The notes: a model not told the origin generated them from the sequence alone. 64,000 nucleotides of DNA from Bryobacterales bacterium (GCA_963728965.1 CAVSMH010000010.1:212573-276572), one strand, 5' to 3'; shown: positions 3,033 through 51,832, numbered from the stretch's first letter. Translations and numbers: made by a program.

Positions 3033-3033
3033 T

Positions 3034-4242: not shown

Positions 4243-4243
4243 C

Positions 4244-9168: not shown

Positions 9169-9262
9169 ATCCCAGCCGTACTGCCTGGCGCCGACGCTCC
9201 GCTCCGCCGGGTCGAGCTTCGCCCCGGCGCTCCCCCGCCCTATTGCTCGGCCGCGCCGGATC

Positions 9263-9292
9263 TTGACATTCGGGTGCGAAATGTGACATATT
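9263..9292 (+). promoter_or_regulatory. Candidate sigma70-type promoter for the second TonB receptor
   Basis: Perfect -35 TTGACA (9263-9268), 18-nt spacer, then CATATT (9287-9292) preceded by TG (9284-9285). It lies about 40 nt upstream of ATG 9331. Confidence 0.35.
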
Positions 9293-9330
9293 TGATCCAC
9301 TTTGCAGTCTCGCACGTCCAAGGTTTTCTT

Positions 9331-12948: not shown

Positions 12949-13114
12949 TCGGAGTCACGCGCTGGCGTCGCCCTGGGGGCCGGCAGGCCTCTCGGGCGCG
13001 CGCCGGCCCACCATCAGCCACACCGGGAGCCGCGGCAGATGGAACTCTGCGGGCTGCACATGGCGTGGCGCAGTTAAGGCCGCATGGATCGAATAAAATA
13101 AGTCAAGGTTCTTG

Positions 13115-14521: not shown

Positions 14522-14533
14522 TCCCCATGCATG

Positions 14534-14569
14534 CCGGCGCGGCGCAGACTCTCGTGTCTGTCGCGCCGG
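14534..14569. terminator. GC-rich imperfect hairpin between convergent genes (candidate bidirectional terminator, no U tract)
   Basis: CCGGCGCG (14534-14541) pairs with CGCGCCGG (14562-14569). Inner AGAC/GTCT pairing (14546-14549 / 14556-14559). It lies between stop 14521 (+) and stop 14595 (-). Confidence 0.3.
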
Positions 14570-14594
14570 GACTTCTCTCGGCGGTGCTTTTCGC

Positions 14595-15437: not shown

Positions 15438-15514
15438 GACAGCATGAGTAACACAGGGCGCTCGCCCGCGCAATTTTCTCCGTCATCCCGCCGGCGGTGT
15501 GGGACGATGGAACA

Positions 15515-32571: not shown

Positions 32572-34344
32572 TCAGCGCCCGGAGTGCACTTCGGGCGGAT
32601 CGGTTTGCATGATGAAATCGGTAGGTGCCCCGGGAATACTGTACTCATACGGACCGTGGTGCACCACGGGATGGACGCCGGCGAAGTTGTCGAAGGGCGG
32701 AGGCGAGGGAACGGTCCACTCGAGTGTGGTCGCGTTCCACGGATTCGACGACGCCGGAGCGCCCTTGCGGATGCTCCAGATCAGGTTGAGGAGGAAGATG
32801 AGCTGTGCGGCGGCCGTGATGTATGCCGCCCAGGTCATGAAGGTGTGGACCGGGATCAGCCCGGCCAGGTACTCGACATCGGTGAAGGCGGAGTAACGCC
32901 GCGGGTTGCCGGCGATCCCCAGGTAGTGCATGGGCGTGAAGATGGCGTACACGCCGGCGAAGGTGAGATAGAAGTGGAGCTTGCCCAGGGTCTCGTTGAG
33001 GTGCTTCCCGGTCACCTTGGGGAACCAGTAGAAGGTGCCCGCGAACATGCCGAAAATCGCCGCCACGCCCATGATCATGTGGAAGTGCCCCACCACGAAA
33101 TAGGTGTCGTGGAAGTACAGGTCGAGCGCCGGCTGACCCAGGAAGATGCCGCTTACGCCGCCCGTCACGAACAGCGAAACGAAGCCCAGGGCGAACATCA
33201 TGGCGGTGGTGAAATGGATCTTGCCGCCCCACAATGTGCCGATCCAGTTGAACGTCTTGATGGCTGACGGCACCCCGATGCACATCGTCAGAATGGAGAA
33301 TGCCATCGCCGAGTAGGGATTCATGCCGCTCATAAACATGTGATGGCCCCACACCAGGAATCCCAGGAAGCCGATGGACAGGATCGCGTACACCATGGCC
33401 TTGTAGCCGAAGATGGGTTTGCGCGAGAACGTGGAGAGCAACTGCGAGGTGACGCCCATGCCCGGCAGAATGGCGATATACACTTCCGGATGGCCAAAGA
33501 ACCAGAAGAGGTGCTGCCACAGCAGCGGCGAGCCGCCCTTGTGGTTGGCGATGATCTGGTCGCTGATAAACAGTCCGCCGGGAAGGAAGAAACTCGTGCC
33601 GGCGAGCCGGTCGAGCAGCAGCAGGACGCCGGCGGCGAGCAGCACGGCAAAGCCCAGCAGGCCCAGGATGGCGGTGACCAGCCACGTCCAGCACGTCAGC
33701 GGCATACGCATCAGGCTCATGCCCTTGCAGCGGAGATCGACCGTGGTGGCGATGAAGTTGATGGCGCCCATCAGCGACGCGCCGCAAAAAATGGCGATGC
33801 TCAGAATCCACAGGTTCTGCCCCATGCCTTCGCCGGGTCCGGTGATGCGCCCGACGCCGCTCAGCGGCGGGTAGGCGGTCCACCCGGAGAGCGGCGCGCC
33901 ACCCTGCACGAAAAACGCCGATACCATCACCACCAGGGCCAGGAAGGTGGTCCAGAACGACATCATGTTCAGCACCGGGAAGGCCATATCTTCGGCGCCG
34001 ATCTGGAGCGGAAGGAAATAATTGCCGAACCCGCTCTGCGGCACCGTGGTGAGCACGAAGAACACCATGATCGTGCCGTGCATGGTCATCAGCGACAGGT
34101 ACAACTCCGGGGTCATCACGCCGCCCGCCGCTGCGGTCGGCCATAACTTCGCAAACCACGACACCGACACGTTCGGGTTGATCATGTGGTAGCGCATCAG
34201 CAGCGAGAGCGACATTCCCAGGAATACCGAAAACAACCCCAGGAAGTAGTATTGGATACCGATCACCTTGTGATCGAGGCTGAAGATATAACGCCGGATA
34301 AAACCGTGCGGCGCCGCGTGGGCGTGGGCTACGGGAGAAGACAT
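32572..34344 (-). CDS. ctaD: Cytochrome c oxidase subunit I
   Basis: DHKVIGIQYYFLG, GHPEVYIAILPGMG, WGHHMF and VVGHFHMIM are canonical haem a/a3-CuB ligand blocks. 590 aa. Confidence 0.95.
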   Translation of the reverse strand: MSSPVAHAHAAPHGFIRRYIFSLDHKVIGIQYYFLGLFSVFLGMSLSLLMRYHMINPNVSVSWFAKLWPTAAAGGVMTPELYLSLMTMHGTIMVFFVLTTVPQSGFGNYFLPLQIGAEDMAFPVLNMMSFWTTFLALVVMVSAFFVQGGAPLSGWTAYPPLSGVGRITGPGEGMGQNLWILSIAIFCGASLMGAINFIATTVDLRCKGMSLMRMPLTCWTWLVTAILGLLGFAVLLAAGVLLLLDRLAGTSFFLPGGLFISDQIIANHKGGSPLLWQHLFWFFGHPEVYIAILPGMGVTSQLLSTFSRKPIFGYKAMVYAILSIGFLGFLVWGHHMFMSGMNPYSAMAFSILTMCIGVPSAIKTFNWIGTLWGGKIHFTTAMMFALGFVSLFVTGGVSGIFLGQPALDLYFHDTYFVVGHFHMIMGVAAIFGMFAGTFYWFPKVTGKHLNETLGKLHFYLTFAGVYAIFTPMHYLGIAGNPRRYSAFTDVEYLAGLIPVHTFMTWAAYITAAAQLIFLLNLIWSIRKGAPASSNPWNATTLEWTVPSPPPFDNFAGVHPVVHHGPYEYSIPGAPTDFIMQTDPPEVHSGR

Positions 34345-34375
34345 ATTTTCACCTTTGAATGCGTTCCCCGGAATC

Positions 34376-35209
34376 TCACTTTTGGGCCTGTTGTTGCTGC
34401 TTCCACTGCTCGAAATCGGCTTCGCTCATAACCTGCATGGTGGTGCGCATCTGGAAATGGCCCAGCCCGCACAGTTCCGAGCAGGGGACTTCGTAGATGC
34501 CGATGCGGTCAGCCTGGAACGGGAGGGGAATCTCCATTCCGGGCACGAGGTCCTGTTTCAGGCGCAGTTCGCGAACGAAGAAGTTGTGGATCACATCGCG
34601 CGAATGCAGCAGGAGCTTGATCGGTTTGCCGACCGGGACCTTCAACGATGCGCTGACGATATCGTCTTTGCCGGCGGGATCGTGCTCATCGAGTCCCAGC
34701 GGATTGCCGGCGGAGTCGTTGATGAGCTTGAGATCGGTGCGGCCGAATTTGCCGTCGGGCCCGGGATAGCGGAAGGACCACGCAAACTGTTTGGCGGTGA
34801 CCTCGACGGCGAGGGCGTCCGATGGCGACTGGGCGAAGTGGACGCCGGCCCAGATCCGCGTGCCCATCAGCACCAGGCCGAGAAACAGGATGGCGGTGGC
34901 GGTGGTCCACAACGTTTCGAGCTTATTATTGCCGTGGGAGTAGACCGCGCGGCGACCGTCATCCCGGAACTTGACAATGGCGTATCCAAGCACGAACTGC
35001 GCCAGGACGAAAATGATGCCGACTACGATCAGGGTGCGCATGAACTGCACGTCGTACGCCAATCCATGCTGCGAAATAGCGGGCGGAAACCACCAGGTTC
35101 TCGCGAAAAAAAAGTAAGCCGTGACGATCGTTATCACCCACACCAGCGGGGCAAGCAGCATCCCGAAACTCCTCCACGAGGGCGCAATGCCCTCCCCATG
35201 CGCGACCAC
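34376..35209 (-). CDS. coxB: Cytochrome c oxidase subunit II (CuA, no fused cytochrome c domain)
   Basis: Two N-terminal TM helices. CuA motif HNFFVRELRLKQD...CSELCGLGHFQM. The protein ends shortly after the CuA domain. ATG 35161 is an alternative internal start. Confidence 0.9.
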   Translation of the reverse strand: MVAHGEGIAPSWRSFGMLLAPLVWVITIVTAYFFFARTWWFPPAISQHGLAYDVQFMRTLIVVGIIFVLAQFVLGYAIVKFRDDGRRAVYSHGNNKLETLWTTATAILFLGLVLMGTRIWAGVHFAQSPSDALAVEVTAKQFAWSFRYPGPDGKFGRTDLKLINDSAGNPLGLDEHDPAGKDDIVSASLKVPVGKPIKLLLHSRDVIHNFFVRELRLKQDLVPGMEIPLPFQADRIGIYEVPCSELCGLGHFQMRTTMQVMSEADFEQWKQQQQAQK

Positions 35210-36944: not shown

Positions 36945-37856
36945 ATGAGGCTCCTTATGGACCGGCCTGCCACGACCCAAGCTGCTACCGCCCGCGACAT
37001 TATTATGGAGATCCTTCGGAATATGCGGGAAGGGCTGGAGCCCCTTCATTACTCCGTGCTGCCCCCTTCCATCTTCGACGTTTACCTGTATCCGGATGAT
37101 TTGGAACGGCTGCGCGGCATTCTGCCGCGGATTCTGGATGAGGCCCGGCGGGCGCTTGATGCGGAACTGGAGAAGCTCAATCGGGCTTCGCTGCGGGAGC
37201 GGTTGAAAATCGCGCGTCGCGGGGAGCCGAAGATCGCCGCGCCGGAGGGCGGGTGGCGGATCCGGCTCCTCGAGAATACCGACGACGATGCCGAGCCGGG
37301 CGACATCACGATTCATTCGGAACTGGCGCTGCCGGCCAAGCCCGAGTTCGGCGCCGGGTCCATGACTAAGCGGATCGCGACGCGGCGCAATGTGGGCGGC
37401 GGGCGCACCACCTATCAGCCCCAACCTGCCGCGGCGGCAGCCACGACGGCCGCGGCTCCTGCGCCCGCCGAGCGCCCGCCGGAGATCGAGGCCGGTTGCC
37501 TGGCCGTGATCGAGTACGACGATCACGGCGTGCGGAAGACGTTCCAGATGACCAAAGAACAGATCGTAGTAGGGCGCGGCGGGCGCGACTACTGGACCGA
37601 TCTCAAGCTCGACACCGTGCCGGATGTTTCGCGCGAGCACTTCCGCCTGCGGCGCGACGCGGAAACCGGCAAGTTCTTCCTGAAGGACCTGAGCCGGCTG
37701 GGCACCACCATCAACGGGGAGAAAGCGCCTTCGAGCATCGAAATCGTGGACGGGGAGAAGCGGGACCGGAACGTGGAGGCGCCGGTGCCCGACGAGGCGC
37801 GGATCGGGCTCGCGGACGTGCTCTACCTCCATTTCCGAAGCGCATCGCATGGTTAA
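36945..37856 (+). CDS. FHA-domain protein (N-terminal FhaA-like region, Ala/Pro linker, C-terminal FHA)
   Basis: FHA signature IVVGRGG...VSREHFRLRRDAETGKFFLKDLSRLGTTINGEK. N-terminal ...LPPSIFDVYLYPDDLERL... ATG 36957 is an alternative start. Confidence 0.8.
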   Translation: MRLLMDRPATTQAATARDIIMEILRNMREGLEPLHYSVLPPSIFDVYLYPDDLERLRGILPRILDEARRALDAELEKLNRASLRERLKIARRGEPKIAAPEGGWRIRLLENTDDDAEPGDITIHSELALPAKPEFGAGSMTKRIATRRNVGGGRTTYQPQPAAAAATTAAAPAPAERPPEIEAGCLAVIEYDDHGVRKTFQMTKEQIVVGRGGRDYWTDLKLDTVPDVSREHFRLRRDAETGKFFLKDLSRLGTTINGEKAPSSIEIVDGEKRDRNVEAPVPDEARIGLADVLYLHFRSASHG

Positions 37857-39366
37857 AGCCAGACTGAAGTGTGCGGGTGATACCCACCCCGGCCGGGTGC
37901 GGACCAACAACGAAGATGCGTTCCACCTGGACGTGGACCGCGGCATCTTTTTCGTGGTGGACGGCATCGGCGGGCAGGCGGCGGGGGAGAAAGCCGCCGC
38001 CATCGCGGTGGAGCGGCTCCGCGCTCGCCTGGAGCGGCTGACTGGCACGGCGGAGCAGCGCATCCGCGAGGGCATCACGGTGGCAAACAATGAGATTCTG
38101 CGCGCAGCCCGCAGCCATCCGGAATGGGAGGGCATGGCCTGCGTGCTCACCGTGGCGGTGCTGGAGAACGGCTCGGCGGTGGTGGGCCACGTGGGCGATT
38201 CGCGCCTGTATCAGGTGCGCGCCGGCGGAATCCGCAAGATCACGCACGACCATTCGCCGGTGGGCGAGCGCGAGGACAACCGCGAGCTGAGCGAGGCCGA
38301 GGCCATGCGGCACCCGCGGCGTAACGAGGTTTTCCGCGACGTCGGATCGGAGGAGCACACTCCCGACGATCGCGACTGGATCGAGATCCGGCGGCTTGCG
38401 TTCGACGCCGACACCGCCCTCCTGTTGTGCAGCGACGGGCTGAGCGACCAGGTGCCTTCGGGCGAGATTCGCCGGCTGGTGGAACAGAACGCCGGTAACC
38501 CGGAGGCGGCGGTGCGCGACCTGATCGATGCCGCCAACCGTGCCGGCGGCAAGGACAACGTTACGGTGGTGCTGATGGAAGGCGAGCAGTTCCAGGCGCC
38601 GGCCCGCGTCGTCGCGGCACCGCCAACTCGCACGGGTGGCCGCTGGTGGTTTCTGGCAGCCGGACTGCTCTTGGGCTTGGCGGCGATGTTCGGAGCACTG
38701 AAGTGGCTCGGGTGGCGGGTCCCTCCCCCGCCGGTGGCGCCCCCGCAGGTAGTCCTGGTCGGTACGGGACAGGCGTTCACGCGGATCGGCGACGCGCTGG
38801 CGCAGGCGCGCGCGGGCGACGTCGTGGAAGTGCTCGCCGGCGACTACCACGAGCAGGTGCGGCTCAAAGAAGGCGTCACCGTACGCAGCCGCGTGCCGCG
38901 GGAAGCCGTGCTGCTGGCAGTGCCGCTGAGCGACGGCCCGGTGGTGGTGGCCGACTCGGTTAAAGACGGGCGCATCGCGGGCTTTCTGATTCGCGCCGAC
39001 CAGCAGGCCCCGATGGCGGCCGGAATCGTGCTCACCGGTTCGGATGTGGTGGTGGAGGACATGGAAGTGAAAGGCGCCGCCAAGGGAATCGTAATTCACG
39101 GTGGAACTCCGGTGCTGTTGGGGAATTCCATCCTCGACGGCACCGGCGAAGGCATCGTGGTGAGCGCTTCGAACGCCTGGGTTCTGCATAACTCGATTCG
39201 CAGGAACAAAGGCGCCGGGCTGGCGGCGCGCGACGGTGCCCAGCCAGTGGTGGCCGAGAACGTCTTCGAGAGAAACACAGTGGAACTGCCGAACGAAATG
39301 CTCAATGCGGTGAAGGCGCTCAACGTGTTCGTGGGAATGCCCAGGGTGGGGCCAGCCAGAAAATGA
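37849..39366 (+). CDS. PP2C-family Ser/Thr phosphatase with TM helix and extracytoplasmic right-handed beta-helix domain
   Basis: PP2C blocks NEDAF, VVDGIGGQAAGE, VGDSRLY, LLCSDGL and GGKDNVTVV. TM helix RWWFLAAGLLLGLAAMFGALKWLGW. The C-terminal ~220 aa have PbH1-like repeats (GIVLTGSDVVVEDMEV.GAAKGIVIHGGTPVLLGNSILDGTGEGIVVSASNAWVLHNSI..N). 8-nt overlap with the upstream gene. Confidence 0.85.
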   Translation: MVKARLKCAGDTHPGRVRTNNEDAFHLDVDRGIFFVVDGIGGQAAGEKAAAIAVERLRARLERLTGTAEQRIREGITVANNEILRAARSHPEWEGMACVLTVAVLENGSAVVGHVGDSRLYQVRAGGIRKITHDHSPVGEREDNRELSEAEAMRHPRRNEVFRDVGSEEHTPDDRDWIEIRRLAFDADTALLLCSDGLSDQVPSGEIRRLVEQNAGNPEAAVRDLIDAANRAGGKDNVTVVLMEGEQFQAPARVVAAPPTRTGGRWWFLAAGLLLGLAAMFGALKWLGWRVPPPPVAPPQVVLVGTGQAFTRIGDALAQARAGDVVEVLAGDYHEQVRLKEGVTVRSRVPREAVLLAVPLSDGPVVVADSVKDGRIAGFLIRADQQAPMAAGIVLTGSDVVVEDMEVKGAAKGIVIHGGTPVLLGNSILDGTGEGIVVSASNAWVLHNSIRRNKGAGLAARDGAQPVVAENVFERNTVELPNEMLNAVKALNVFVGMPRVGPARK

Positions 39367-41312
39367 TAGCGCCGGCGAGCCGGAAGATCGGAAAGTACGG
39401 CATCCTGCGCAAGCTGGGCCGCGGCGGGATGGCGGACGTGTACCTGGCCCAGGATAGCGAGTGCCACTGCACGGTGGCGCTGAAACTGATCGAGCACGCA
39501 CCCGACCCCGATACGCAGGATGCGATCGAGGCCGAACGGCGCGGCGCCACGCTGCAAGCCCGGCTGGCCGAGACCGAGCGGCACGTCGTGCGGATTTTCG
39601 ATTCGAGCGACGCCGACGGGTTCTTCTACGTGGCCATGGAGTACGTGGAAGGCCAGGACCTCTCCGAACTGCTGCGGCGCGGTCCGCTGCCGGCGGAGTT
39701 CGCCGTGGATGCGGCCCGGGCGGTGGCGCAGACCCTCGACAGCGCCCACCATCTCCAGGTGATCATCGATGGCAAGGAGTTCCACGGCATCGTTCACGGC
39801 GATATCAAGCCGAAGAACATCCGCATCGACACCACCGGAGAGGTGCGCGTACTGGATTTCGGGATCGCCAAGGCGCTGTCGCTTTCCCGGCGACTGACCC
39901 GCAACGAGTTCGGCAGCGTGCCCTACGGCTCCCCGGAACGGCTGGAACTCGGCGAAGTGAACGTGCTTTCCGACCTGTGGTCGCTGGCGGTGATGCTGTA
40001 CGAAATGCTGACCGGCGCGCAGCCCTACCAGGCGGAGAACACGGAGCGGCTCGAACGCCTCATCCGCTCGCGCGTGGCACCGCCGGCGCTGCCGGATTCG
40101 TGTCCGGAGACGCTGCGGCGCATCCTCCGGAAAGCGATGGCGCCGGAGCCGGAGTTGCGGTACCAGTCGGCGCGGGAGTTCGACGAAGACCTGGCTGCCT
40201 TTCGCGAGGGCGGAACGGTGCGGGCGCTGGTGGAGGATCTGGAGGCCACGCGCCGGACGGGGCGCCGCGACCTGGACGAGACACGCCGCACGCAGACCGG
40301 GACACTCGCCGCGGCCGACGATGAGACGCGGCGGACCGCCACCAACGGCCGGGCGTCCCTTCATTTCGGAAAATGGCCGCCCAAGCGGCGCCGTCTGCTG
40401 CGCCGGAAGATCCTGTCCGTCGCGTCCCTGGTAGTGGGATTGTGGATGGCGTGGCTGCTGATTTCGAGCGTGCTGCTCTACAAGCGCGGGCAGGCGCTGA
40501 CCCGCGAGATTGCCGCCGAGCAGGTGACCGACCCCAACCAGGTGTGGGCGCGATGGACCGAACTGGCGGGAAATAATCCTTCCTCTCCGTGGCTCAGCGC
40601 GCCCCGCAAGGCAGTGAAGCAGAAACTGGCGGGCGCCGCGGACCGGGTGATCGAGAGTTACCGCAACGGCGACGTGGTATATGAGACCCAGTGGAAGAGC
40701 GCCCGCGACCTGCTGGCCCACACCCTGGTGCTCGATCCGGACAACGAAGTGCGCGCGAAGCTGCGCGTGTGCGAGGGGCACCTGGCGCGAATCAGCGGCT
40801 CGAGCCACCGCTCGGCGTCCGAATATAACGATGCCGTGTCCAAGTTCAACGAAGCCCACCAACTGATGCCGCAATCGCCCGACCCGCTGCTGGGACTGGC
40901 GCGGGTTTACGTCTACGGCCTGAAAGACATCGATAAGGGCTACCAGGCGCTGGAGCAGGTGGAAAAGCGTGGGTTTCAACTGGGCAATCGCGAGAAGAGC
41001 CTGCTCGCCGACGGGTATCGTGAGCGGGCCGACCGGCTCTTCTGGGACTCCCGCACGGTGCGCGGGATGCCGCAGGAGAAGGACGAGATCGAGCGCGCCA
41101 GAGACGACTACGAGCGGTCGCTCAAGCTGTACCAGAGTGTGGCGCCGTGGGGCAACGCCTATGCCAGCATCGGGCGCGTGGAACAGAGCCTGGAGAGCGT
41201 CAATTCGCGATTGCAGCAGATCGAGCACGGAAACGGCCCCCTGGGCGTGCTGGAGAAGGCCAAGAAGATTCCCTCCTGGCTCAAGCCCCTGATCGATCGG
41301 ATCACCAGGTGA
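39363..41312 (+). CDS. Ser/Thr protein kinase (non-RD, HGD catalytic loop) with TM helix and helical/TPR-like ectodomain
   Basis: Kinase motifs LGRGGMADVY, VALKLI, HGDIKPKNIRID, DFGIAK and GSPERL. TM helix ILSVASLVVGLWMAWLLISSVLL. All-helical C-terminus. ATGA overlap with the phosphatase gene. Confidence 0.85.
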   Translation: MIAPASRKIGKYGILRKLGRGGMADVYLAQDSECHCTVALKLIEHAPDPDTQDAIEAERRGATLQARLAETERHVVRIFDSSDADGFFYVAMEYVEGQDLSELLRRGPLPAEFAVDAARAVAQTLDSAHHLQVIIDGKEFHGIVHGDIKPKNIRIDTTGEVRVLDFGIAKALSLSRRLTRNEFGSVPYGSPERLELGEVNVLSDLWSLAVMLYEMLTGAQPYQAENTERLERLIRSRVAPPALPDSCPETLRRILRKAMAPEPELRYQSAREFDEDLAAFREGGTVRALVEDLEATRRTGRRDLDETRRTQTGTLAAADDETRRTATNGRASLHFGKWPPKRRRLLRRKILSVASLVVGLWMAWLLISSVLLYKRGQALTREIAAEQVTDPNQVWARWTELAGNNPSSPWLSAPRKAVKQKLAGAADRVIESYRNGDVVYETQWKSARDLLAHTLVLDPDNEVRAKLRVCEGHLARISGSSHRSASEYNDAVSKFNEAHQLMPQSPDPLLGLARVYVYGLKDIDKGYQALEQVEKRGFQLGNREKSLLADGYRERADRLFWDSRTVRGMPQEKDEIERARDDYERSLKLYQSVAPWGNAYASIGRVEQSLESVNSRLQQIEHGNGPLGVLEKAKKIPSWLKPLIDRITR

Positions 41313-41412
41313 GGATTCTGGTGCCGGCTTCCGATTGCTGGAGCGGGACTCTACCCGCTCTTTGGCGAAACCATGGGACCGTACCGCGGCGGCAACACGG
41401 CGGGTCGAGGAT

Positions 41413-44400
41413 ATGGCGGTAACACGTAGCAGGGCGGCCGAACGGGCCGAAGTGCGGCGGGTGCCCGGAGGCCGCCTCTTGTGGCGGCGGCACGAGCTTG
41501 GGGGCATGGTGGCCGCGTGTCTGCTGGTCGCGGTCGGGCTCATTCTGGTCTACCGCTCCAAAGCCGACGCGCTCAACGATAACCCGCAGTTGGTGAACCT
41601 GAACGCGCTGACCGCGCGCGAGGAACTGTTGCCGGCGCTGGGCTCGATTCAGGACCCGCGGGAACGGCTGGAGACGGCGCGCAAAATCTACTACCTTTCG
41701 GGCTCGCTTCCGAATGTGGGCGGAATCCGGCACCTGCTCAGCGGCGAGCAGTTTCGCGAGTTGAAGCCGACATTCGTGGTGCGGCGGCCGGCGCAGTTCC
41801 GCCGGGCATTCTGGCTCTGGGTGACGCTGTTCTTCGCAGCGTTCCTGGCAGTGCACGTCTGGTGGAGCCTGCGGCGGTTCGAGGGCGACCCGCTGCTGCT
41901 GCCGGCGGTACTGGCCCTCAGCGGGATCGGGCTGATCCTGATGATCAGCCTGCGCGATCCACTCCGCGACAACCTGCTGTTCGTGGAGTTCGCGCAGGGC
42001 GCCGTTCTGGGCGCGATTCTGCTGGCCGGGCTGAGCGCCCTGGACTACCAGAAACTGCTGGGGAAGCTCACTTTCGTTCCGCTGCTGGCCAGCTTTGCCC
42101 TTTCGGTCCTGCTGATCTTGTTCGGCCATGGACCGGGCACGAGCGACGCCAAAGTGAACCTGCTCGGGTTCCAGCCGGTGGAGATCATCCGCCTGCTGCT
42201 GATTCTTTTCCTGGCGGGTTTTTTTGCCAGCCGGTGGGACGTGCTGCGCCACGCGCGGGAAACGCGGCCCTCGCTGGCGCGGCTGACGCGCCGCTTCGAT
42301 ATTCCGCCGGTGGAGTACACCGCGCCGGTGGTGGTGTCGGTGGCGTTGTCGCTCGTCTTCTTCTTCCTGCAACGCGACATGGGCCCGGCGCTGGTCTTCG
42401 CGAGCCTGTTCCTGGTGCTGTACGCGGTGGCGCGGGGCAGCGTCCTGGTGCCCGCGGTGGGCCTGGGGCTGGTGGCCGCGGGGTTCGGATTCGGTTATCT
42501 CATCGGCGTGCCGCACACCGTGGCCAGCCGCATGGCCATGTGGCTCTCGCCATGGAACAACGTGGTGCACGGCGGCGATCAACTGGCGCATTCGCTGTGG
42601 GCGTTTGCGACGGGCGGCCTCACGGGCATGGGAATCGGCAGGGGCGATCCCGGGCTGGTCCCGGCGGCGCACACCGACCTCATCCTCTCTGCACTGGGTG
42701 AGGAGTGGGGATTCCTGGGTGTGGCGGCGGTGCTCGCGCTCTATGCCTTCCTGGTGTACCGTTCGCTGCGCATCGCCACCCGGTCGCGGTCGGATTACGA
42801 ATTCTTCCTGGGTACCGGGCTGGCGGCGGCGACGGCTTTGCAGGTTCTGTTGATCTCGGCCGGCGCGTTGGGCGTGATGCCGCTGTCGGGCGTGGTCACG
42901 CCGTTCCTGAGCTACGGGCGCACGTCCATGCTGGCGAACTTCGCCATGATTGCGATGGTGGCGGCGATTTCCTCGCGCGCCGGCAAACCGGTCGCGGAGC
43001 GGCTGCCCCCTCTGCGCGCCGGAACGCGCACGCTCGCCGCGGTGTTCGCCGTGTGCGGAGCTGTGGTGCTAGCCAAGGCGGCTTACGTGCAAGTGCTGCG
43101 CAGCGCGACGGTTATGGGGCAAGGCACTCTGGTGGTGCAGGCCGACGGGGCTCGGCGCTATCAGTACAACCCCCGATTCCAGGACGTGATGCGCGAGATT
43201 CCGAAAGGCTCGATTTACGACCGCAACGGTCTGCCTCTGGCCACCAGCAACTGGGACGAACTGGAAAAGCACCGGGCGGAATACAAGCAGCTCGGCATCG
43301 ATATCGACCGCGCGTGCTCCAGGACGGACACCCGCCACTATCCGCTGGGCGGGCTGCTTTTCGACATGCTGGGCGATTTGCGGACGCGCATGCGGTGGGG
43401 TGCGTCGAACACTTCCTTCGTGGAGCGCGACTCGGCACGGCGCCTGCGCGGCTACGACGACCGGCCGGAACTGGTGCAGGTGAAGGATCCGCGCAGCGGC
43501 CGGATGGACACCGTGATCCGCTACGACTACCGCGAGCTGGTGCCCTTGTTGCGGCATCGCCGCGACCCGCAGAATCCGGCCGTGCGCCGCATCCTGGACC
43601 GGCCGCGCGACGTGAAGATGTCGGTCGATGCGCGGCTCGAAGTCAAGCTGGGAGAGATTCTGCGGAACCAGTTGCGGCAGGCGGGCAAGGACAAGGGGGC
43701 CGCGGTGGTGATGGATGCAGCGACGGGAGACCTGCTCGCGGCAGTGAGCCTGCCGGTGCCGCCCGATCGCCCCGAAGCCGCGGCGCCGGCGCCCGATGCG
43801 GCGAATCCGTTCCTGGACCGGGCGCGGTACGGGCTCTATCCGCCCGGCTCGACCTTCAAAGTGGTGACCGCCATGGCAGCGCTGCGAAAGGACGCGGGCC
43901 TGGTGCACCGCACCTACGAGTGCATCCGCCTGCCCGACGGGCGTGTGGGCAACTACATCAAAGGCTCGAGCCGGCCCATCCGCGACGATATTCAGGACAC
44001 CTCGCCGCACGGGACGGTCGACATGGCCCGCGGCATCACGGTTTCGTGCAACGCGTACTTCGCCCAGTTAGGGACGTACGATGTGGGGGCGCAGGCGCTG
44101 TTCGACACGGCGAAGCTGCTGGGCATTACGGTGGCCGCCCCGGATACGGCCGCGCAGCTTCATAAATCCCTGCCGCAATCGGCCTACGGGCAGGGGCAGG
44201 TCGTAGCGTCGCCATTCCAGATGGCGCGCGTGGCGGCCACTGTCGCGGCGGGCGGCATGATGCCGCAAGGCCGGTGGATTACCGACGAGAACAACGTACG
44301 CACCAACGAACCCGCCCCGGTGCTGCCCCCCGAGGCGGCGCAGACGCTGGCCCGGTTCATGCGCGCGGTGGTGACCTCGGGCACGGGGCGGCGCGCCGCG

Positions 44401-44619
44401 GCGTCCGATGTGGCCGTTGCCGGCAAGACCGGTACGGCGGAGCTGGCCGACGCGCCTTCCCACGCCTGGTTCATCGGCTTTGCGCCCTACGGGGGCACGG
44501 GGCGCAAGCTCGCCGTCTCGGTGCTGGTGGAAAATGGAATCTACGGCGGTACGGCGGCGGCGCCCGCGGCGGCCGAGATCATGAGCGCCGCGGCGAAGCT
44601 GGGGTTGATGAAACCATGA
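41413..44619 (+). CDS. Fused SEDS glycosyltransferase (RodA/FtsW family) and class B penicillin-binding protein (transpeptidase)
   Basis: Single uninterrupted frame. SEDS blocks DPLLLPAVLALSGIGLILMISL, LGFQPVEIIRLLLILFLAGFF, HTDLILSALGEEWGFLG and GVMPLSGVVTPFLSYGRTSM. Then an extra TM helix TRTLAAVFAVCGAVVLAKAAY. Then a bPBP with SxxK (PPGSTFKV), SxN (TVSCNAYF) and KTG (AGKTGTAE). The start is uncertain (ATG 41413 vs TTG 41335). Confidence 0.85.
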   Translation: MAVTRSRAAERAEVRRVPGGRLLWRRHELGGMVAACLLVAVGLILVYRSKADALNDNPQLVNLNALTAREELLPALGSIQDPRERLETARKIYYLSGSLPNVGGIRHLLSGEQFRELKPTFVVRRPAQFRRAFWLWVTLFFAAFLAVHVWWSLRRFEGDPLLLPAVLALSGIGLILMISLRDPLRDNLLFVEFAQGAVLGAILLAGLSALDYQKLLGKLTFVPLLASFALSVLLILFGHGPGTSDAKVNLLGFQPVEIIRLLLILFLAGFFASRWDVLRHARETRPSLARLTRRFDIPPVEYTAPVVVSVALSLVFFFLQRDMGPALVFASLFLVLYAVARGSVLVPAVGLGLVAAGFGFGYLIGVPHTVASRMAMWLSPWNNVVHGGDQLAHSLWAFATGGLTGMGIGRGDPGLVPAAHTDLILSALGEEWGFLGVAAVLALYAFLVYRSLRIATRSRSDYEFFLGTGLAAATALQVLLISAGALGVMPLSGVVTPFLSYGRTSMLANFAMIAMVAAISSRAGKPVAERLPPLRAGTRTLAAVFAVCGAVVLAKAAYVQVLRSATVMGQGTLVVQADGARRYQYNPRFQDVMREIPKGSIYDRNGLPLATSNWDELEKHRAEYKQLGIDIDRACSRTDTRHYPLGGLLFDMLGDLRTRMRWGASNTSFVERDSARRLRGYDDRPELVQVKDPRSGRMDTVIRYDYRELVPLLRHRRDPQNPAVRRILDRPRDVKMSVDARLEVKLGEILRNQLRQAGKDKGAAVVMDAATGDLLAAVSLPVPPDRPEAAAPAPDAANPFLDRARYGLYPPGSTFKVVTAMAALRKDAGLVHRTYECIRLPDGRVGNYIKGSSRPIRDDIQDTSPHGTVDMARGITVSCNAYFAQLGTYDVGAQALFDTAKLLGITVAAPDTAAQLHKSLPQSAYGQGQVVASPFQMARVAATVAAGGMMPQGRWITDENNVRTNEPAPVLPPEAAQTLARFMRAVVTSGTGRRAAASDVAVAGKTGTAELADAPSHAWFIGFAPYGGTGRKLAVSVLVENGIYGGTAAAPAAAEIMSAAAKLGLMKP

Positions 44620-45428
44620 GCGTGTTTTCCGAAATTGAGAAGACCATCGAACGCGGCTTCCGTCGATGGACCGAGCGCGTCTTCGGAGCCGTCGAGTCCG
44701 ACGAGCTGTTGTTGGTGCATCGCGCGGTTCTGGAGGCGATCGAAAGCAAAGTTCAGACCGTGGCGCGCGGCAAGCGCCTGTTTCCTTACTCGCGGCTCGT
44801 GGTGACGATGGTGTCGCCCGATGCCGACCGCCGCGCGGTCTACCAGGCCGCGTTCGCCGACGGCGGGCGTCTGGAGAGCGAAGTTCGCGAAATGCTGGAA
44901 GGCACTGGCTGTGAGCTCACGCGCGGGTTGACGCTCGAAGTGCGGACCGCCGGGAACGGGGACAAGCCGTTCCTCATCGAGTATGAGGTGGGCTCCGTGG
45001 CGCCCGCGCCGCCGGCGCCGGCCGCCGCTCCCGTGAACCTGGCTGCGCCCGCGATCGTAACCGGCGTGGCGCGGCTGGTGGTCGTGCGGGGCAAAGCCGC
45101 CAGCGAGGATTACCGGCTCGACAAGGCGCGCACCAATATCGGGCGGATGGTGGAATTGACCGACGCCGAGGGGCACGTCGTGCGCCGCAACGACCTGGTG
45201 TTCGAGGAAGGCGGCGACGACGCCAACGGAACCGTATCGCGCCGCCATGCGCACATCCGGCTCGAGGCCGGCGAATACCGCATCTGCGACGACGAGAGCG
45301 AGTTCGGCACGCGCGTTTTCCGCGACGGCCGACCCATTGAAGTCCCCCCGGGAAACCGGCGCGGGGAGCGCCTCCGCTCCGGCGACGAGATTTACCTCGG
45401 CCGGGCCTGCGTCCGGTTCGAGCGCTAG
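44616..45428 (+). CDS. FhaA-like protein (DUF3662-type N-terminal domain + FHA domain)
   Basis: MSVFSEIEKTIERGFRRWTERVFG... has the DUF3662-like start. FHA block NIGRMVEL...VSRRHAHIRLEAGEYRICDDESEFGTRVFRDGRPI. ATGA overlap with the SEDS-PBP stop. Confidence 0.85.
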   Translation: MSVFSEIEKTIERGFRRWTERVFGAVESDELLLVHRAVLEAIESKVQTVARGKRLFPYSRLVVTMVSPDADRRAVYQAAFADGGRLESEVREMLEGTGCELTRGLTLEVRTAGNGDKPFLIEYEVGSVAPAPPAPAAAPVNLAAPAIVTGVARLVVVRGKAASEDYRLDKARTNIGRMVELTDAEGHVVRRNDLVFEEGGDDANGTVSRRHAHIRLEAGEYRICDDESEFGTRVFRDGRPIEVPPGNRRGERLRSGDEIYLGRACVRFER

Positions 45429-45464
45429 TGGGTGGCCGCGGCGCCGCCGCACTACCATAGAAGG

Positions 45465-46130
45465 ATGCCGGCTTTTCTGTTCGACCTCGACGGCACCCTG
45501 GTGGACAGCGTTTACCAGCACGTGCTCGCGTGGAGAGACGCGCTGGAGGAAGCGGGGCTGCCCCTGGCGGTGTGGCGCATCCATCGCAAAATCGGGATGA
45601 GCGGCGGCCTCTTCGTGAACGCGCTGGCCCGCGAAACCGGTCGCCCCATGGACGCCGAAGACACGGCGCGCATGCAGACGCTCCACGCGGAGGCGTTCCG
45701 GCGCTATTCGGCGCAGGTCCGGCCGCTGCCGGGCGCGCGCGAACTGCTGGCGTACCTGGCCAAATCGGGCGTGCCGCATGCCGTTGCCACCAGCGGCTAC
45801 CAGGAAAGCGCGGGCCGCTCGTTGCGGACGCTCGGCATCGGCCCCGACGTGCCGGTGGTCACCCGCGACCAGGTGGAACATGCCAAGCCGGACCCCGACC
45901 TCTTTCTGGCCGCGGCCCAGCGGTTGGGCGTGTCCATTGAAGATTCCGTTGTGGTCGGCGACAGCATCTGGGACCTGCTGGCGGCGCGCCGCGCGCGCGC
46001 GCTTGGCGTGGGACTGCTCTCCGGCGGCTACGGCTCCGAGGAGCTGGAGCGCGCGGGCGCGTATCGCGTCTACGAGGACCCGGCGGACCTGTTGGCCCAC
46101 TTGGACGAGCTGGGCGTCAGGGTGGGCTGA
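45465..46130 (+). CDS. HAD-IA family hydrolase (phosphatase-like)
   Basis: MPAFLFDLDGTLVDS (DxDGT motif I), VATSG (motif II), HAKPDPD and VVGDSIWDLLAA (motifs III/IV). Confidence 0.8.
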   Translation: MPAFLFDLDGTLVDSVYQHVLAWRDALEEAGLPLAVWRIHRKIGMSGGLFVNALARETGRPMDAEDTARMQTLHAEAFRRYSAQVRPLPGARELLAYLAKSGVPHAVATSGYQESAGRSLRTLGIGPDVPVVTRDQVEHAKPDPDLFLAAAQRLGVSIEDSVVVGDSIWDLLAARRARALGVGLLSGGYGSEELERAGAYRVYEDPADLLAHLDELGVRVG

Positions 46131-47394: not shown

Positions 47395-49374
<1,980 letters not shown>

Positions 49375-49378
49375 TGCA

Positions 49379-51832
49379 TCAGCTTGCCCGCAGGGCCACC
49401 GATGGATCGATGTGCGAGGCCCGCCGGGCGGGCAGGTAGCTCGCCACCGCGGCCACGGCGGTGAGTACCGCCGTCATGCCGCAGAACGTTACCGGATCCG
49501 TCGCCGTCACGCCGTACAGAAGCCCGCCGAGCGCCCGCGCCAGCACCCAGGAGGCAACCGCTCCCACCAGCATGCCCGCGGCCGCCAGCCCCAGCGTCTG
49601 GCCGACAATCCCCGCCTGCAGGGTGCCCGCCGATGCTCCCAGCGCCATGCGAACCCCGATCTCCTGCGTCCGCTGGCTCACTGAATACGAAACGACGCCA
49701 TAGATTCCCAGCGACGCCAGGATCAGCGCGAACAGGGCGAATCCGCCCAGCAGCAGCACGATCAGCCGCCGCGGCGATACGGCTTTATCGACGAGTTCCT
49801 GCAAGGTGCGAAAGTCCTTGCCGGGTATGTCCGGCGCGATCGGCCGGAGGGCGGCGCGAACCGCTGAAGCCAGTTCGGCCGGCGGCAGCTTGGTGCGTAC
49901 CACCAGGTCCACCGAAGCGATGTCGCGGCATTGCCGCATGGGCAGGTAGATTTCCATTCCGGAGCCCTGCTCCAGGGCCAGGTGCCGCACGTCCCCCACC
50001 ACGCCCACCACACGCCGCTCGCCGCAAGCCCGTATGAACTTGCCGAGCGCGCTTTCACCCGCGAAAAGCGTGCGCGCCATGGTCTCGTTGATGACGATCA
50101 CCGGATCGCTGCCGGGGGCGTCCCGTACGCTGATATCGCGTCCTTCGCGCAAGGGTATGCCCATGGAACCGATGTAGCCGTCGCTCACTACACGGACGAA
50201 AGAATCGGGGAACTTCCCTTTCGGATAGGTCTGGCCTTTGGCCGGCGTGCCCCAACTTCGGTTGCGGCCCAGCGGCAGCGCATCGGTCAGGCCGGCCGCC
50301 AAAACGCCGGGAACGGCCCGCACCCGCCGCAGCACGTCGTCGAAGTAGGCGTTCTGCTGGGGCTGGGTGGAATACCGCGAGTCGGGATCCACGCGCAGCG
50401 CGGCGGCGCGCTCCGGCCGGAATCCCAGGTCCACATCGAGAACATGCAGGAAGCTGCGTACCAACAATCCCGCGCCTACCAGCAGCACGCTGGCGAAGGC
50501 GATCTCCGCCGCTACGAGTGCGTTCCGGATCCAGCTCCGCCCCCGGCCGGCCGTCGAACCTCGCGTGGTGTCCTTCAGCACGTCGTGAAGCGCCGCACCG
50601 GGCGTCTGGAGCGCGGGCGCGAGGCCGAAGATCACCCCGGTAAGCAGCGAGGCCGCCAGCGTAAACGCCAGCGCCGCCGGATCGGTGCGGACGCTCCGCA
50701 GCAGCGGAATGCTGACCGCATCCAGGTGCGACAGAATCCGCGTGCCGGCGATTGCCAGAACCACACCCAGCGCGGCGCCGCAACAGGACAGCGCGATTCC
50801 CTCGGTGAGCATCTGCCGGATCAGCCGCCCCCGTCCCGCGCCCAGGGCGGTGCGGATCGCAATCTCCTTCTGCCGGCTGGCGGTGCGTGCCAGCAGCAGG
50901 TTCGACACGTTGGTGCAGACAATCAACATAACCACACCCACCGCGCATGCCAGCACCGTCAACGCTAATCGCAGCCGCCCGCTCACGTGTTCCGCCAGGG
51001 GCTTGATCACGCCTTCAAAGTTGTTGCGCTCCGGGTGCGCCCGCACGATCTGGGAAGCCAGAATTTTCAGTTCGGCCCGGGCCTCCCCCAGCGTGACCCC
51101 GGGCTTCAGGCGGCCGATGATGGCCATCGTGTTGCCCCAACGGTTCGTTTCGTTGCTGAGCGGAAACGGGAAATACAGATCGAAATGGCTGCCCGGCGCG
51201 AATACCGCCGCAAAATCGAAGGAGGCCGGCAGCACACCCACCACCGTCACCGGCTGGTTATTCAGCGTGAGCGCCTGGCCCACGATCGCGGGATCGGAGC
51301 CAAACCGCCGCGCCCACAGCCCGTGGCCCAGCAGCACGGCTTTGGGCCCGTGCCATTTGCATTCTTCCGCATTGAACAGGCGGCCGAGCTGCGGCTGAAT
51401 GCCCAGCACCTGGAAGAAATTCTCCGACACCGGCACCCCGCTCAGCCGCTCCGGCTCTCCCTGCCCGCTGAGCAGATTGTCGCCGACGCCATAGAACGCA
51501 AAATAGGCTGCCAGGTCGGAAAACGACCGGTTGCGCGCGCGCAGATCGAGCAGGTGCCCCACTTGCGTCGTCTGGCTCGAAAGACCGCTGCTGTCGTGGT
51601 TGGCGATCCAGACCAGGCGCTCCGGATCGGTGAACGGCAGCGGCCGAACCAGCACCGCATTGACCACGCTGAACACGGTCGCGCTGGCGCCGATCCCCAG
51701 TCCCACGATCCAGATGGCGAAGGTGGCGAACCCGGCATCGCGCCGCAGTGTGCGAAACGTGTAGTGCAAGTCGTGCAGAATACTATCCACTACGGAATGA
51801 AAATGGCCGGAAGCGGTAGATCGGGGCATCAA
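49379..51832 (-). CDS. ADOP-type (duplicated MacB/FtsX) ABC transporter permease
   Basis: N-terminus ...LHDLHYTFRTLRRDAGFATFAIWIVGLGIGASATVFSVVNAVLVRPLPFTDPERLVWI is typical of the TIGR03434 family. Two MacB-periplasmic + FtsX modules. 817 aa. Confidence 0.85.
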   Translation of the reverse strand: MMPRSTASGHFHSVVDSILHDLHYTFRTLRRDAGFATFAIWIVGLGIGASATVFSVVNAVLVRPLPFTDPERLVWIANHDSSGLSSQTTQVGHLLDLRARNRSFSDLAAYFAFYGVGDNLLSGQGEPERLSGVPVSENFFQVLGIQPQLGRLFNAEECKWHGPKAVLLGHGLWARRFGSDPAIVGQALTLNNQPVTVVGVLPASFDFAAVFAPGSHFDLYFPFPLSNETNRWGNTMAIIGRLKPGVTLGEARAELKILASQIVRAHPERNNFEGVIKPLAEHVSGRLRLALTVLACAVGVVMLIVCTNVSNLLLARTASRQKEIAIRTALGAGRGRLIRQMLTEGIALSCCGAALGVVLAIAGTRILSHLDAVSIPLLRSVRTDPAALAFTLAASLLTGVIFGLAPALQTPGAALHDVLKDTTRGSTAGRGRSWIRNALVAAEIAFASVLLVGAGLLVRSFLHVLDVDLGFRPERAAALRVDPDSRYSTQPQQNAYFDDVLRRVRAVPGVLAAGLTDALPLGRNRSWGTPAKGQTYPKGKFPDSFVRVVSDGYIGSMGIPLREGRDISVRDAPGSDPVIVINETMARTLFAGESALGKFIRACGERRVVGVVGDVRHLALEQGSGMEIYLPMRQCRDIASVDLVVRTKLPPAELASAVRAALRPIAPDIPGKDFRTLQELVDKAVSPRRLIVLLLGGFALFALILASLGIYGVVSYSVSQRTQEIGVRMALGASAGTLQAGIVGQTLGLAAAGMLVGAVASWVLARALGGLLYGVTATDPVTFCGMTAVLTAVAAVASYLPARRASHIDPSVALRAS

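Follow-up and report, generated by a model that had tools for sequence, protein, structure and literature searches.

Within the 64,000-nucleotide stretch of Bryobacterales DNA analysed here (the window), five genes on the plus strand encode an FHA-domain protein, a PP2C phosphatase, a Hanks-type Ser/Thr kinase, a protein that joins a SEDS glycosyltransferase to a class B PBP (bPBP), and a second FHA-domain protein (Table 1). The genes overlap or abut, the PP2C gene sharing 8 nt with the end of the first FHA gene and 4 nt with the start of the kinase gene, and no terminator signal above chance was found within the five-gene operon. Pfam profiles identify the phosphatase (PP2C_2, E 1.5e-16; PP2C, 9.1e-15; Beta_helix, 4.1e-09) and the kinase (Pkinase, 2.8e-38; TPR_19, 2.3e-05), the latter with no PASTA domain. 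Both FHA proteins show weak matches to FhaA_N, with E 0.21 for the first and 0.11 for the second (aa 2-80). The same order, with the fusion gene fourth of five, is kept in nearly all related loci. The kinase gene immediately precedes the fusion in nearly all of them and the PP2C gene keeps its position, whilst the first FHA gene is present in most loci whose sequence reaches that far. The second FHA gene directly follows the fusion in nearly all loci, including those of paralogues that have no kinase module. The operon to which the fusion gene belongs extends across the phylum Acidobacteriota.

Table 1. Genes of the operon and regions of the fusion protein. Positions are counted from the first nucleotide of the window.
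Feature	Position (nt)	Strand	Length or residues	Description
FHA-domain protein 1	36945..37856	+	303 aa	Operon gene 1; Pfam FHA, E 3.7e-09
PP2C Ser/Thr phosphatase	37849..39366	+	505 aa	C-terminal beta-helix/NosD-like domain; Pfam
Hanks-type Ser/Thr protein kinase	39363..41312	+	649 aa	C-terminal TPR region; Pfam
SEDS::bPBP fusion gene	41413..44619	+	1068 aa	Single ORF; PF01098 and PF00905 in one chain
N-terminal tail, probably cytoplasmic	41413..41496	+	aa 1-28	Conserved motif M-A-V-T-R-S-x-x-x-[ED]-R...W-R-x-x-E
Extra TM helix A	41497..41553	+	aa 29-47	Kyte-Doolittle peak 2.51; AlphaFold helix 20-55
Conserved all-alpha module	41554..41796	+	aa 48-128 (~80 residues)	Predicted periplasmic; between TM helices A and B
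Extra TM helix B	41797..41862	+	aa 129-150	Kyte-Doolittle peak 1.88; AlphaFold helix 126-153; N-terminal to the SEDS profile match
SEDS glycosyltransferase core, 10 TM	41893..42978	+	aa 161-522	PF01098; FQPVE (E257), HTD (D422)
Cytoplasmic linker	42979..43032	+	aa 523-540	Variable sequence and length
bPBP membrane anchor, 13th TM helix	43033..43089	+	aa 541-559	Kyte-Doolittle peak 2.15; AlphaFold helix 532-562
Divergent bPBP pedestal/N-terminal module	43090..43695	+	aa 560-761	Highly conserved within the family
Transpeptidase domain	43696..44583	+	aa 762-1057	PF00905; S813-T-F-K816, S878-C-N880, K1005-T-G-T
FHA-domain protein 2	44622..45428	+	268 aa	Pfam FHA, E 7.4e-07; starts 2 nt past the fusion stop

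The fusion gene lies in an open frame that runs uninterrupted on the plus strand from a TTG at 41335 to 44619 (1094 codons). From the ATG at 41413 it encodes 1068 residues plus a stop, in agreement with the first-pass annotation, which had described one uninterrupted frame of ~1070 codons. This start is supported by the homologues, 64/65 of which open with MAVT or MAIT, and a gene prediction made independently in a relative of 87% identity yields 1070 aa. GC content is 0.85 at third codon positions against 0.49 at second positions, and the frame is therefore genuinely coding, unlike the 815-aa ORF on the opposite strand, which arises by chance from high GC.

The SEDS half is complete, as had been claimed. 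FTSW_RODA_SPOVE (PF01098) matches aa 163-522 with E 1.3e-51 (176.2 bits against a cut-off of 26.4) and spans profile positions 4-353 of 356. Ten TM segments lie within aa 161-522 according to both the hydropathy profile and the AlphaFold helices. The start of the core, near aa 161, corresponds to Pfam profile position 4, residue 67 of PaFtsW and residue 27 of TtRodA, and the core aligns to both structures (PaFtsW, 8bh1; TtRodA, 6bar). In this alignment D422 of the HTD motif falls opposite TtRodA D255, counted from the alignment, and the FQPxE motif, here FQPVE with E257, is aligned too. Neither E257 nor D422 varies among 65 homologues. The alignment also suggests that the N- and C-termini of the core face the cytoplasm.

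After the core comes a linker that shows gaps and low conservation in the column profiles of homologues, with a length that varies and a frame that is always kept. The earlier reading of an extra TM helix behind it, given as TRTLAAVFAVCGAVVLAKAAY within about nt 42990-43100, stands: the quoted residues are aa 538-558 (nt 43024-43086). Its numbering as the eleventh helix does not, because helices A and B precede the 10-TM core and the anchor is therefore the 13th. The proposal that this helix carries the PBP from the cytoplasmic linker to the periplasm is likewise supported; it is the single TM anchor ahead of periplasmic PBP domains that class B PBPs require. The transpeptidase profile (PF00905) matches with E 1.1e-40 (140.2 bits against a cut-off of 22.1), and the STFK (813-816), SCN (878-880) and KTGT (1005-1008) motifs previously reported are all found and are invariant in the 65 homologues. 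By sequence, the best PDB match to this half is PBPA of M. tuberculosis (3un7, E 3.2e-20), and Foldseek returns PBP3, PbpA and an Atopobium PBP with target-normalised TM-scores (TMt) of 0.55-0.68. No GT51 transglycosylase domain was detected, PF01098 and PF00905 being the only Pfam domains in the chain at E up to 0.01. The first reading of a natural single-chain fusion of SEDS and class B PBP is correct.

The pedestal that had been assigned to the bPBP is only partly borne out. Its motif KGSIYDRNGLPLATS (RGxIxDRNG-like) and the VKMSVDARLE junction with the transpeptidase align to PBP3, and RHYPLGG may correspond to a conserved bPBP N-module motif. However, no PBP_dimer profile, whether PF03717 or the PBPA-type PF21922, matches the pedestal at E up to 10, and weak matches to one or the other are found in relatives (P0220 and P0211). 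The structure prediction that had been suggested gave moderate quality only for the full-length chain (pLDDT 71.5, pTM 0.55). TM helices A and B and the anchor helix are modelled, whilst the pedestal is of low confidence.

Ahead of the SEDS core lies an N-terminal extension. In the tail, residues T4, S6, R11 and W24 are invariant or almost so across 65 sequences, and the MAVTRS motif recurs in members of Thermoanaerobaculia and Holophagales. The tail is probably cytoplasmic, judging from its positive charge and from a relative (P0134) that is a PP2C-SEDS-bPBP triple fusion. There the PP2C domain sits directly on the synthase, which connects the two functions and points to a cytoplasmic N-terminus. 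The all-alpha module between helices A and B should face the periplasm. It is modelled with pLDDT of about 90 and holds eight invariant residues in the 65 homologues (L63, N64, E70, P74, A89, G103, R115 and K118). Pfam gave no match to the module, whether in the window protein, 20 other Bryobacterales sequences or 10 divergent N-termini from Acidobacteriota, and Foldseek gave no significant fold match in the PDB (best E-value 2). A ComEA-type helix-hairpin-helix (HHH_3, PF12836) was considered for the module and rejected, there being no profile or fold match; HHH_3 occurs at the equivalent position only in P0220, an Armatimonadota relative, and hhalign of the two N-terminal modules aligned only TM helix B.

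Among Acidobacteriota the fused form is the rule. The best 120 protein database matches, clusters drawn from NCBI, ENA, JGI and Logan, come from Bryobacteraceae, Solibacter and Sulfopaludibacter, and 120/120 are full-length two-domain proteins of ~1070 aa. All of the best 80 GTDB species loci are acidobacterial (80/80; Bryobacterales, Terriglobia, Thermoanaerobaculia and Holophagales) and mostly cover residues 1-1068 at 48-74% identity. A single frame from SEDS to the end of the PBP is kept in 78/80 of these species-level genomes, down to 48% identity, which answers the first-pass annotation's concern about a frameshift or missed stop. One relative (L048) has a frameshift inside the transpeptidase region. 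Some genomes hold a second fusion paralogue, with no kinase module upstream. Such fusions had been mentioned as rare; judged by the best 80 loci and the best 120 matches, within Acidobacteriota they are standard. More distantly, over 100 of the best 150 representatives of 50% identity clusters are 950-1400 aa long and span both halves, members of Armatimonadota and Emticicia (Bacteroidota) among them.

The window gene encodes both domains in one polypeptide from one uninterrupted gene, and so fits the published definition of a natural SEDS-bPBP chimera. A 2025 survey in Microlife catalogues 117 such InterPro proteins as 'bifunctional class B PBPs', and its main text highlights no acidobacterial example (PMC12516126). 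The fusion type is already published, and its novelty as an object is therefore modest. The survey's example from Rhodococcus jostii RHA1 is a 947-aa chimera that shares with the window protein the FtsW/RodA/SpoVE and transpeptidase domains and the N-to-C order of GTase, pedestal and TPase, but its gene is flanked by mreB and not by an FHA/PP2C/kinase operon (PMC12516126). A 1341-aa chimera of Pedobacter ginsengisoli is, like the window gene, described there beside Ser/Thr kinase and phosphatase genes (PMC12516126). An Emticicia protein of 1340 aa (P0272), which carries a CarboxypepD_reg domain, is likely a relative of the Pedobacter chimera, and homology to the window protein is detectable for the representative of its cluster (P0268), at 33% identity. 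The Bacteroidota proteins are longer than the window protein by ~270 aa. They are described as carrying two SEDS regions and lacking a pedestal, whereas the window protein combines a single SEDS core with a pedestal. The window family differs further from the chimeras in the survey's main text in its 2-TM N-terminal module and in a pedestal missed by PF03717. We found just two features without an earlier description, the N-terminal module and the conserved MAVTRS tail, probably cytoplasmic.

Other systems resemble parts of the arrangement. Class A PBPs carry a soluble GT51 glycosyltransferase and a transpeptidase in one chain; like the window protein they unite both peptidoglycan-synthase activities, but GT51 is unrelated to the polytopic SEDS core. 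A SpoVE-SpoVD fusion has reportedly been made in B. subtilis. In Actinobacteria the operon fhaA-fhaB-pstP-rodA-pbpA-pknA-pknB (M. tuberculosis Rv0014c-Rv0020c) also brings together two FHA proteins, PP2C, Hanks kinase, SEDS and bPBP, as is seen here at 36945-45428 (for the actinobacterial cell-wall operon see PMC6554272 and PMC11898655). The likeness to M. tuberculosis extends to PBPA, which among solved structures matches the transpeptidase best by sequence, and to the weakly FhaA_N-like N-termini of both FHA proteins. In contrast, Actinobacteria have separate SEDS and bPBP genes and two kinases, one with PASTA domains, whereas the window has a fused gene and one TPR kinase, and its order (FHA-PP2C-STK-SEDS::PBP-FHA) differs. 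Because the kinase is of TPR and not PASTA type and the gene order differs, the shared regulatory logic is an analogy only. Lastly, an engineered RodA-(GGGS)3-PBP2 was functional in vivo in E. coli and active in vitro (PMC6207328; see also PMC10449877). Like the SpoVE-SpoVD fusion, this construct follows the same order and principle as the window protein, with the cytoplasmic SEDS C-terminus joined to the cytoplasmic bPBP N-terminus, and the geometry of the window fusion is therefore workable (PMC6207328). Both are laboratory versions of canonical elongasome or sporulation pairs, whereas the window fusion is natural, ancient and non-canonical.

A rival reading, in which the fusion is no separate, kinase-controlled third synthase but just the fused form of these bacteria's housekeeping pair, from the elongasome (RodA-PBP2) or the divisome (FtsW-FtsI), is unlikely. 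The best NCBIfam model is ftsW, the best PDB match of the SEDS half is PaFtsW, and a search of the window and of 1.4 Mb of related loci turned up no further SEDS or bPBP gene, all of which would suit a housekeeping pair. However, the NCBIfam equivalog scores reach about half the cut-off or less, at 173.8 against 337.5 for ftsW (TIGR02614), 134.7 against 336.7 for rodA (TIGR02210) and under half for pbp2, and because they fall so far short the SEDS half does not count as canonical FtsW or RodA. Moreover, the gene sits in the FHA/PP2C/kinase operon, with no dcw or mreBCD/rlmH context found, some genomes hold two paralogous fusions, and chimera-bearing species in the survey's main text also have canonical FtsW/FtsI (PMC12516126).

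That one fused gene yields two proteins, by an internal translation start or by linker cleavage that frees SEDS and bPBP, appears quite improbable. The linker has no stop codon, no in-frame ATG with a Shine-Dalgarno sequence occurs upstream of the anchor helix, and the only in-frame GTGs nearby lie inside the TM anchor, which a start there would truncate. No conserved cleavage motif is seen in the linker columns, and the phylum-wide retention of the fused frame argues that the covalent link is selected. These points outweigh the linker's variability and predicted disorder (AlphaFold pLDDT <50 at aa 526-530) and the minor fraction of engineered E. coli RodA-PBP2 that was cleaved on purification (PMC6207328).

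A catalytically dead scaffold in one half, leaving a single activity, is very improbable. The pedestal is divergent and both domains score modestly against curated equivalog models, but S813, K816, S878, N880 and K1005-T-G are invariant along with E257 and D422 in the 65 homologues (mean column identity 71%), and the catalytic residues of both halves are also kept in relatives of 36-48% identity. An assembly or sequencing artefact that joined two genes through a missed stop or frameshift can be dismissed. SEDS and bPBP genes often lie side by side, one indel would be enough to merge them, and L048 does carry a frameshift, but the single frame recurs in 78 of 80 independent species-level assemblies, every one of the best 120 protein clusters is full-length and the linker varies in length yet always stays in frame.

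We consider it probable that the product of the gene is a true bifunctional peptidoglycan synthase in a single chain, with the activity and phospho-regulation proposed here. The division of labour between SEDS proteins and bPBPs is established for the family. The 10-TM SEDS core would polymerise lipid II to glycan strands through D422, in a periplasmic loop, and E257 of FQPxE. The 13th TM helix would bring the class B PBP, pedestal and transpeptidase with nucleophile S813, to the periplasm, where it would crosslink the nascent strand. The covalent link would fix the 1:1 SEDS:bPBP pairing that is non-covalent in other bacteria. By analogy, each step of regulation by the operon's own proteins may be sketched as follows. 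The membrane kinase would phosphorylate Thr/Ser on a cytoplasmic part of the synthase, candidate sites being T4/S6, which are invariant near the N-terminus, or T292, which lies in the loop between TM4 and TM5; the two FHA proteins would read these sites and the PP2C would erase them. Such control would parallel PknA/B-PstP-FhaA/B around RodA-PbpA in Actinobacteria.

A broader reading is doubtful but conceivable. The family may be a distinct, self-contained synthase class, a 13-TM SEDS::bPBP with a periplasmic helical module, a MAVTRS phospho-acceptor tail and a kinase/phosphatase/FHA switch in its own operon, and its fused state may be the one from which the actinobacterial RodA-PbpA signalling cluster descends. 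If canonical RodA-PBP2 is absent in these bacteria, the fusion would be their only elongation synthase. Were this true, structural work would gain a favourable object, an elongasome core that is minimal by nature and under phospho-regulation.

A natural single-chain fusion of a SEDS protein and a class B PBP (SEDS::bPBP) is confirmed as an observation and supported as an interpretation, with corrections. The gene is held in a single open frame (41335..44619, + strand, in the ORF listing of the window) and translation from the ATG at 41413 yields a product of 1068 aa, so the uninterrupted frame of ~1070 codons described in the first-pass annotation stands. The GC content of the window is 65-67% and long spurious ORFs lie on the strand opposite the fusion; the codon-position GC of the fusion (GC3 0.85, GC2 0.49) argues that it is a true coding sequence. 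Moreover, 64/65 homologues open with MAVT or MAIT, which supports the start at 41413. The public gene call for the window protein (P0001, 1037 aa) begins at Met32, cutting off the conserved cytoplasmic N-terminus, or MAVTRS tail, together with part of TM helix A (window 41413-41508), and this call is probably too short. In a scan of the fusion gene, none of the ATG codons in frame ahead of the anchor helix was preceded by a Shine-Dalgarno sequence. Lastly, a frameshift or missed stop, which the annotation had asked to be checked, is excluded and an assembly artefact ruled out, as everything from the SEDS core through the PBP C-terminus stays in a single frame in 78/80 loci, the best 80 of 583 stretches recovered by scanning one genome per GTDB species. 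The two exceptions are a frameshift inside the transpeptidase (L048) and a 3-nt coordinate difference at the end of the alignment (L030).

Both halves are recognised by Pfam and are probably active. Pfam FTSW_RODA_SPOVE matches aa 163-522 (E 1.3e-51) and Transpeptidase aa 762-1057 (E 1.1e-40), the latter with STFK at 813-816, SCN at 878-880 and KTGT at 1005-1008. On alignment with TtRodA, D422 (in the sequence HTD) falls on the catalytic D255, and FQPVE (E257) aligns with the conserved ECL2 motif. Residues E257, D422, S813, K816, S878, N880 and K1005-T1006-G1007 are invariant in a 65-sequence alignment with a mean column identity of 71%. The pedestal of the window protein has no Pfam match to PF03717 or PF21922 and is modelled at low confidence in the full-length AlphaFold prediction; relatives of the fusion give weak PBP_dimer or PBP_dimer_2 matches. 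At motif level, both the pedestal KGSIYDRNGLPLATS box and the VKMSVDARLE junction between pedestal and transpeptidase align to PBP3, and RHYPLGG, also in the pedestal, resembles a conserved bPBP motif. Among solved transpeptidases, M. tuberculosis PBPA is closest in sequence (E 3.2e-20) and T. thermophilus PBP2 comes next. Foldseek searches with the full model returned PBP3, PbpA and Atopobium PBPs at target-normalised TM-scores of 0.55-0.68, with matches confined to the PBP half and the SEDS-pedestal zone of the model being of low confidence. Against the NCBIfam equivalog models the fusion scores under half of the cut-offs, so it is not a canonical FtsW or RodA. It could be the housekeeping synthase or an accessory, third one; no canonical SEDS/bPBP genes were found elsewhere in the window and 81 loci, which at 1.4 Mb represent too little genome to inform this.

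The layout of the protein was derived from hydropathy and AlphaFold secondary structure and is listed with the surrounding genes in the table. The hydrophobic helix quoted in the first-pass annotation (aa 538-558, nt 43024-43086) is indeed present after the SEDS core, but it is the 13th TM helix rather than the eleventh, because the third TM helix is the first one covered by the SEDS profile or by the alignments to PaFtsW (8bh1) and TtRodA (6bar). The predicted topology nevertheless stays self-consistent, with the N-terminus in, the module out, the SEDS core N-in and C-in, and the anchor leading out. Two observations favour N-in: the tail is positively charged, and in P0134, a relative, a cytoplasmic PP2C is fused ahead of the same tail.

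Features of the SEDS::bPBP protein (aa) and of the window (nt)
Feature	Position	Strand	Remark
Arg-rich cytoplasmic tail	aa 1-28		
TM helix A	aa 29-47		
Conserved all-alpha module	aa 48-128		
TM helix B	aa 132-150		
Ten-TM SEDS core	aa 161-522		
Linker	aa 523-540		variable, poorly ordered
TM anchor of PBP	aa 541-559		
Pedestal-like region	aa 560-761		
Transpeptidase	aa 762-1057		
OMP_b-brl_4/TonB-like outer-membrane barrels (two, large)	51-3032 and 9274-12948		
Serine beta-lactamase-family protein	3034-4242		
GH9 glycoside hydrolase	4244-7111		
M28 peptidase	7108-9168		
Multihaem cytochrome with TPR	13112-14521		
Cytochrome bd oxidase subunit I	15497-16879		
COX1/COX2	32572-35209	minus	
FHA protein (FHA1)	36945-37856	+	
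PP2C phosphatase with C-terminal beta-helix domain	37849-39366	+	
Hanks Ser/Thr kinase (STK) with TPR	39363-41312	+	
Second FHA protein (FHA2)	44622-45428	+	begins 2 nt past fusion stop codon
HAD gene	45432-46130		downstream
UvrB	47395-49374		downstream flank of operon
MacB/FtsX-type permease	49379-51832	minus	downstream flank of operon

Such fusions had been noted as reportedly rare, and this did not hold in Acidobacteriota, where the fusion is conserved phylum-wide. The best 120 matches among 5.8 billion proteins, drawn from independent NCBI, ENA, JGI and Logan assemblies, are without exception full-length, two-domain proteins of ~1070 aa (69-87% identity) named Bryobacteraceae, Candidatus Solibacter, Solibacter usitatus Ellin6076 or Sulfopaludibacter. 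Similarly, the best 80 of the 583 stretches all come from Acidobacteriota (Bryobacterales, other Terriglobia, Thermoanaerobaculia and Holophagales), the majority spanning residues 1-1068 at 48-74% identity. An exhaustive HMMER search over 1.84 billion 50%-identity representatives extended this further: among the best 150, over 100 have lengths of 950-1400 aa and match over both halves, including an Armatimonadota protein (36% identity) and a member of Emticicia, a Bacteroidota genus. Four loci (L009, L011, L019 and L053) look like a second fusion paralogue, with identities of ~66-68% in the first three and 48% in L053; FHA2 is retained in them, but the 8 kb upstream contain neither FHA1 nor PP2C nor the kinase. 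L009 and L003 come from the same MAG, hence some genomes carry two fusions.

The fusion is the fourth of five genes in a tightly packed + strand cluster. By tblastn with the window proteins, the order FHA1-PP2C-STK-fusion-FHA2 recurs in nearly all of the 80 loci, across acidobacterial classes, and it is also found in the independently called genes of an 87%-identical relative. Promoter- or terminator-like sites within the operon do not exceed shuffled expectation. The HAD gene downstream is common to the closest relative only and is not counted in the system. Farther upstream, the cluster at 51-12948 resembles a locus for the uptake of polysaccharides or peptides and is unrelated to the fusion, and the genes at 13112-16879 and 32572-35209 are respiratory. 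Within the operon, the C-terminal domain of the PP2C is a right-handed beta-helix/NosD-like domain, and the kinase carries a TPR region in place of PASTA repeats. Such repeats are typical of cell-wall kinases, and PknB-type kinases sense muropeptides; the signal sensed by this operon is probably a different one. The N-terminal domain of FhaA (PF12401) matches both FHA proteins weakly and below threshold (E 0.11 for FHA2, 0.21 for FHA1), which hints at a distant relationship to mycobacterial FhaA.

In SEDS-bPBP synthases the SEDS protein polymerises lipid II and the bPBP crosslinks the product, and the SEDS protein is normally activated when the anchor helix and the pedestal dock on its TM8/TM9 and ECL4. 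The SEDS core of the fusion would likewise polymerise lipid II and the tethered bPBP would crosslink the resulting strand. An engineered RodA-(GGGS)3-PBP2, with its halves in the order of the fusion, complements a pbpA-rodA deletion and polymerises lipid II in vitro (PMC6207328), and therefore a cytoplasmic tether of ~18 residues suffices. RodA-PBP2 fusions were also employed in a structural study of E. coli RodA-PBP2 (PMC10449877). The most likely regulatory layer is phospho-control of the synthase, given that its co-transcription with genes for a kinase, a phosphatase and two FHA readers is conserved, and by analogy throughout with the actinobacterial PknA/B-PstP-FhaA/B-RodA-PbpA cluster. 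Further support comes from P0134 (1389 aa, 48% identity to the window protein), a triple fusion in which a PP2C domain at aa 4-238 precedes the same tail, TM helix A, module, TM helix B, SEDS core and bPBP, and which would tie the phosphatase functionally to the synthase. The best candidate for a phospho-acceptor is the N-terminal motif M-A-V-T-R-S-x-x-x-[E/D]-R, whose T4 and S6 vary little or not at all within Bryobacterales; the motif is recognisable in Thermoanaerobaculia and Holophagales. T292, in the cytoplasmic TM4-TM5 loop, is also invariant.

The module between TM helices A and B is conserved, and AlphaFold predicts a small helical domain with high confidence (pLDDT ~90). On inspection, the stretch 'LVNLNALTAREELLPAL' had suggested a ComEA-type helix-hairpin-helix, and HHH_3 does match the Armatimonadota relative P0220 at the equivalent position (E 1.5e-10), but this assignment failed every other test. 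Pfam HHH_3 found no match in the window protein, in 21 Bryobacterales N-termini or in 10 divergent acidobacterial N-termini; hhalign against P0220 linked the flanking TM helix alone and did not align the module; and Foldseek with the confident module model returned nothing significant from the PDB, the best hit being the RlmN N-terminal region (E = 2). Some Bryobacterales, and most of the distant acidobacterial classes, have ~28 aa inserted in this module ('ARIRVTAEE...RGLK.FRDRLG'); the form in the window protein (41554-41796) is the short one.

Natural SEDS-bPBP chimeras were published in 2025 as 'bifunctional class B PBPs', and that survey counts 117 InterPro proteins; it describes a 947-aa R. 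jostii protein (GTase-pedestal-TPase), one from Coriobacteriales whose dimerisation domain is of the PBPA type, and a 1341-aa Pedobacter protein with Ser/Thr kinase and phosphatase genes alongside (PMC12516126). Together with the S. usitatus orthologue, whose UniProt entry already carries both domains, these chimeras make the fusion as such already known. In the literature searched we found no description of the acidobacterial FHA/kinase/SEDS operon, and three aspects are not described there: an ancient fusion universal across a phylum, its place in a fixed five-gene FHA/PP2C/kinase operon of Acidobacteriota, and the 2-TM N-terminal module with its MAVTRS tail.

SEDS-bPBP pairs are core cell-wall synthases and major antibiotic targets whose coupling and activation are actively studied. 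A phylum-wide natural fusion shows that enzymes coupled covalently at 1:1 can stay functional across long evolutionary spans, and it provides cryo-EM and enzymology with a stable single-chain object. However, this point on function was already made by the engineered fusions and the 2025 catalogue, so the value added here is more limited; overall the finding is useful to the specialist and unsurprising, with real discovery potential limited to the phospho-regulatory link and the predicted periplasmic module. What is added is the universality of the fusion in a major soil phylum and its tight linkage to a Ser/Thr kinase, PP2C and FHA proteins, with the phosphatase on the same chain in one relative. 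Concrete candidates for the route by which a phospho-signal may reach a SEDS synthase are the conserved tail at the N-terminus and the helical module with its two TM segments.
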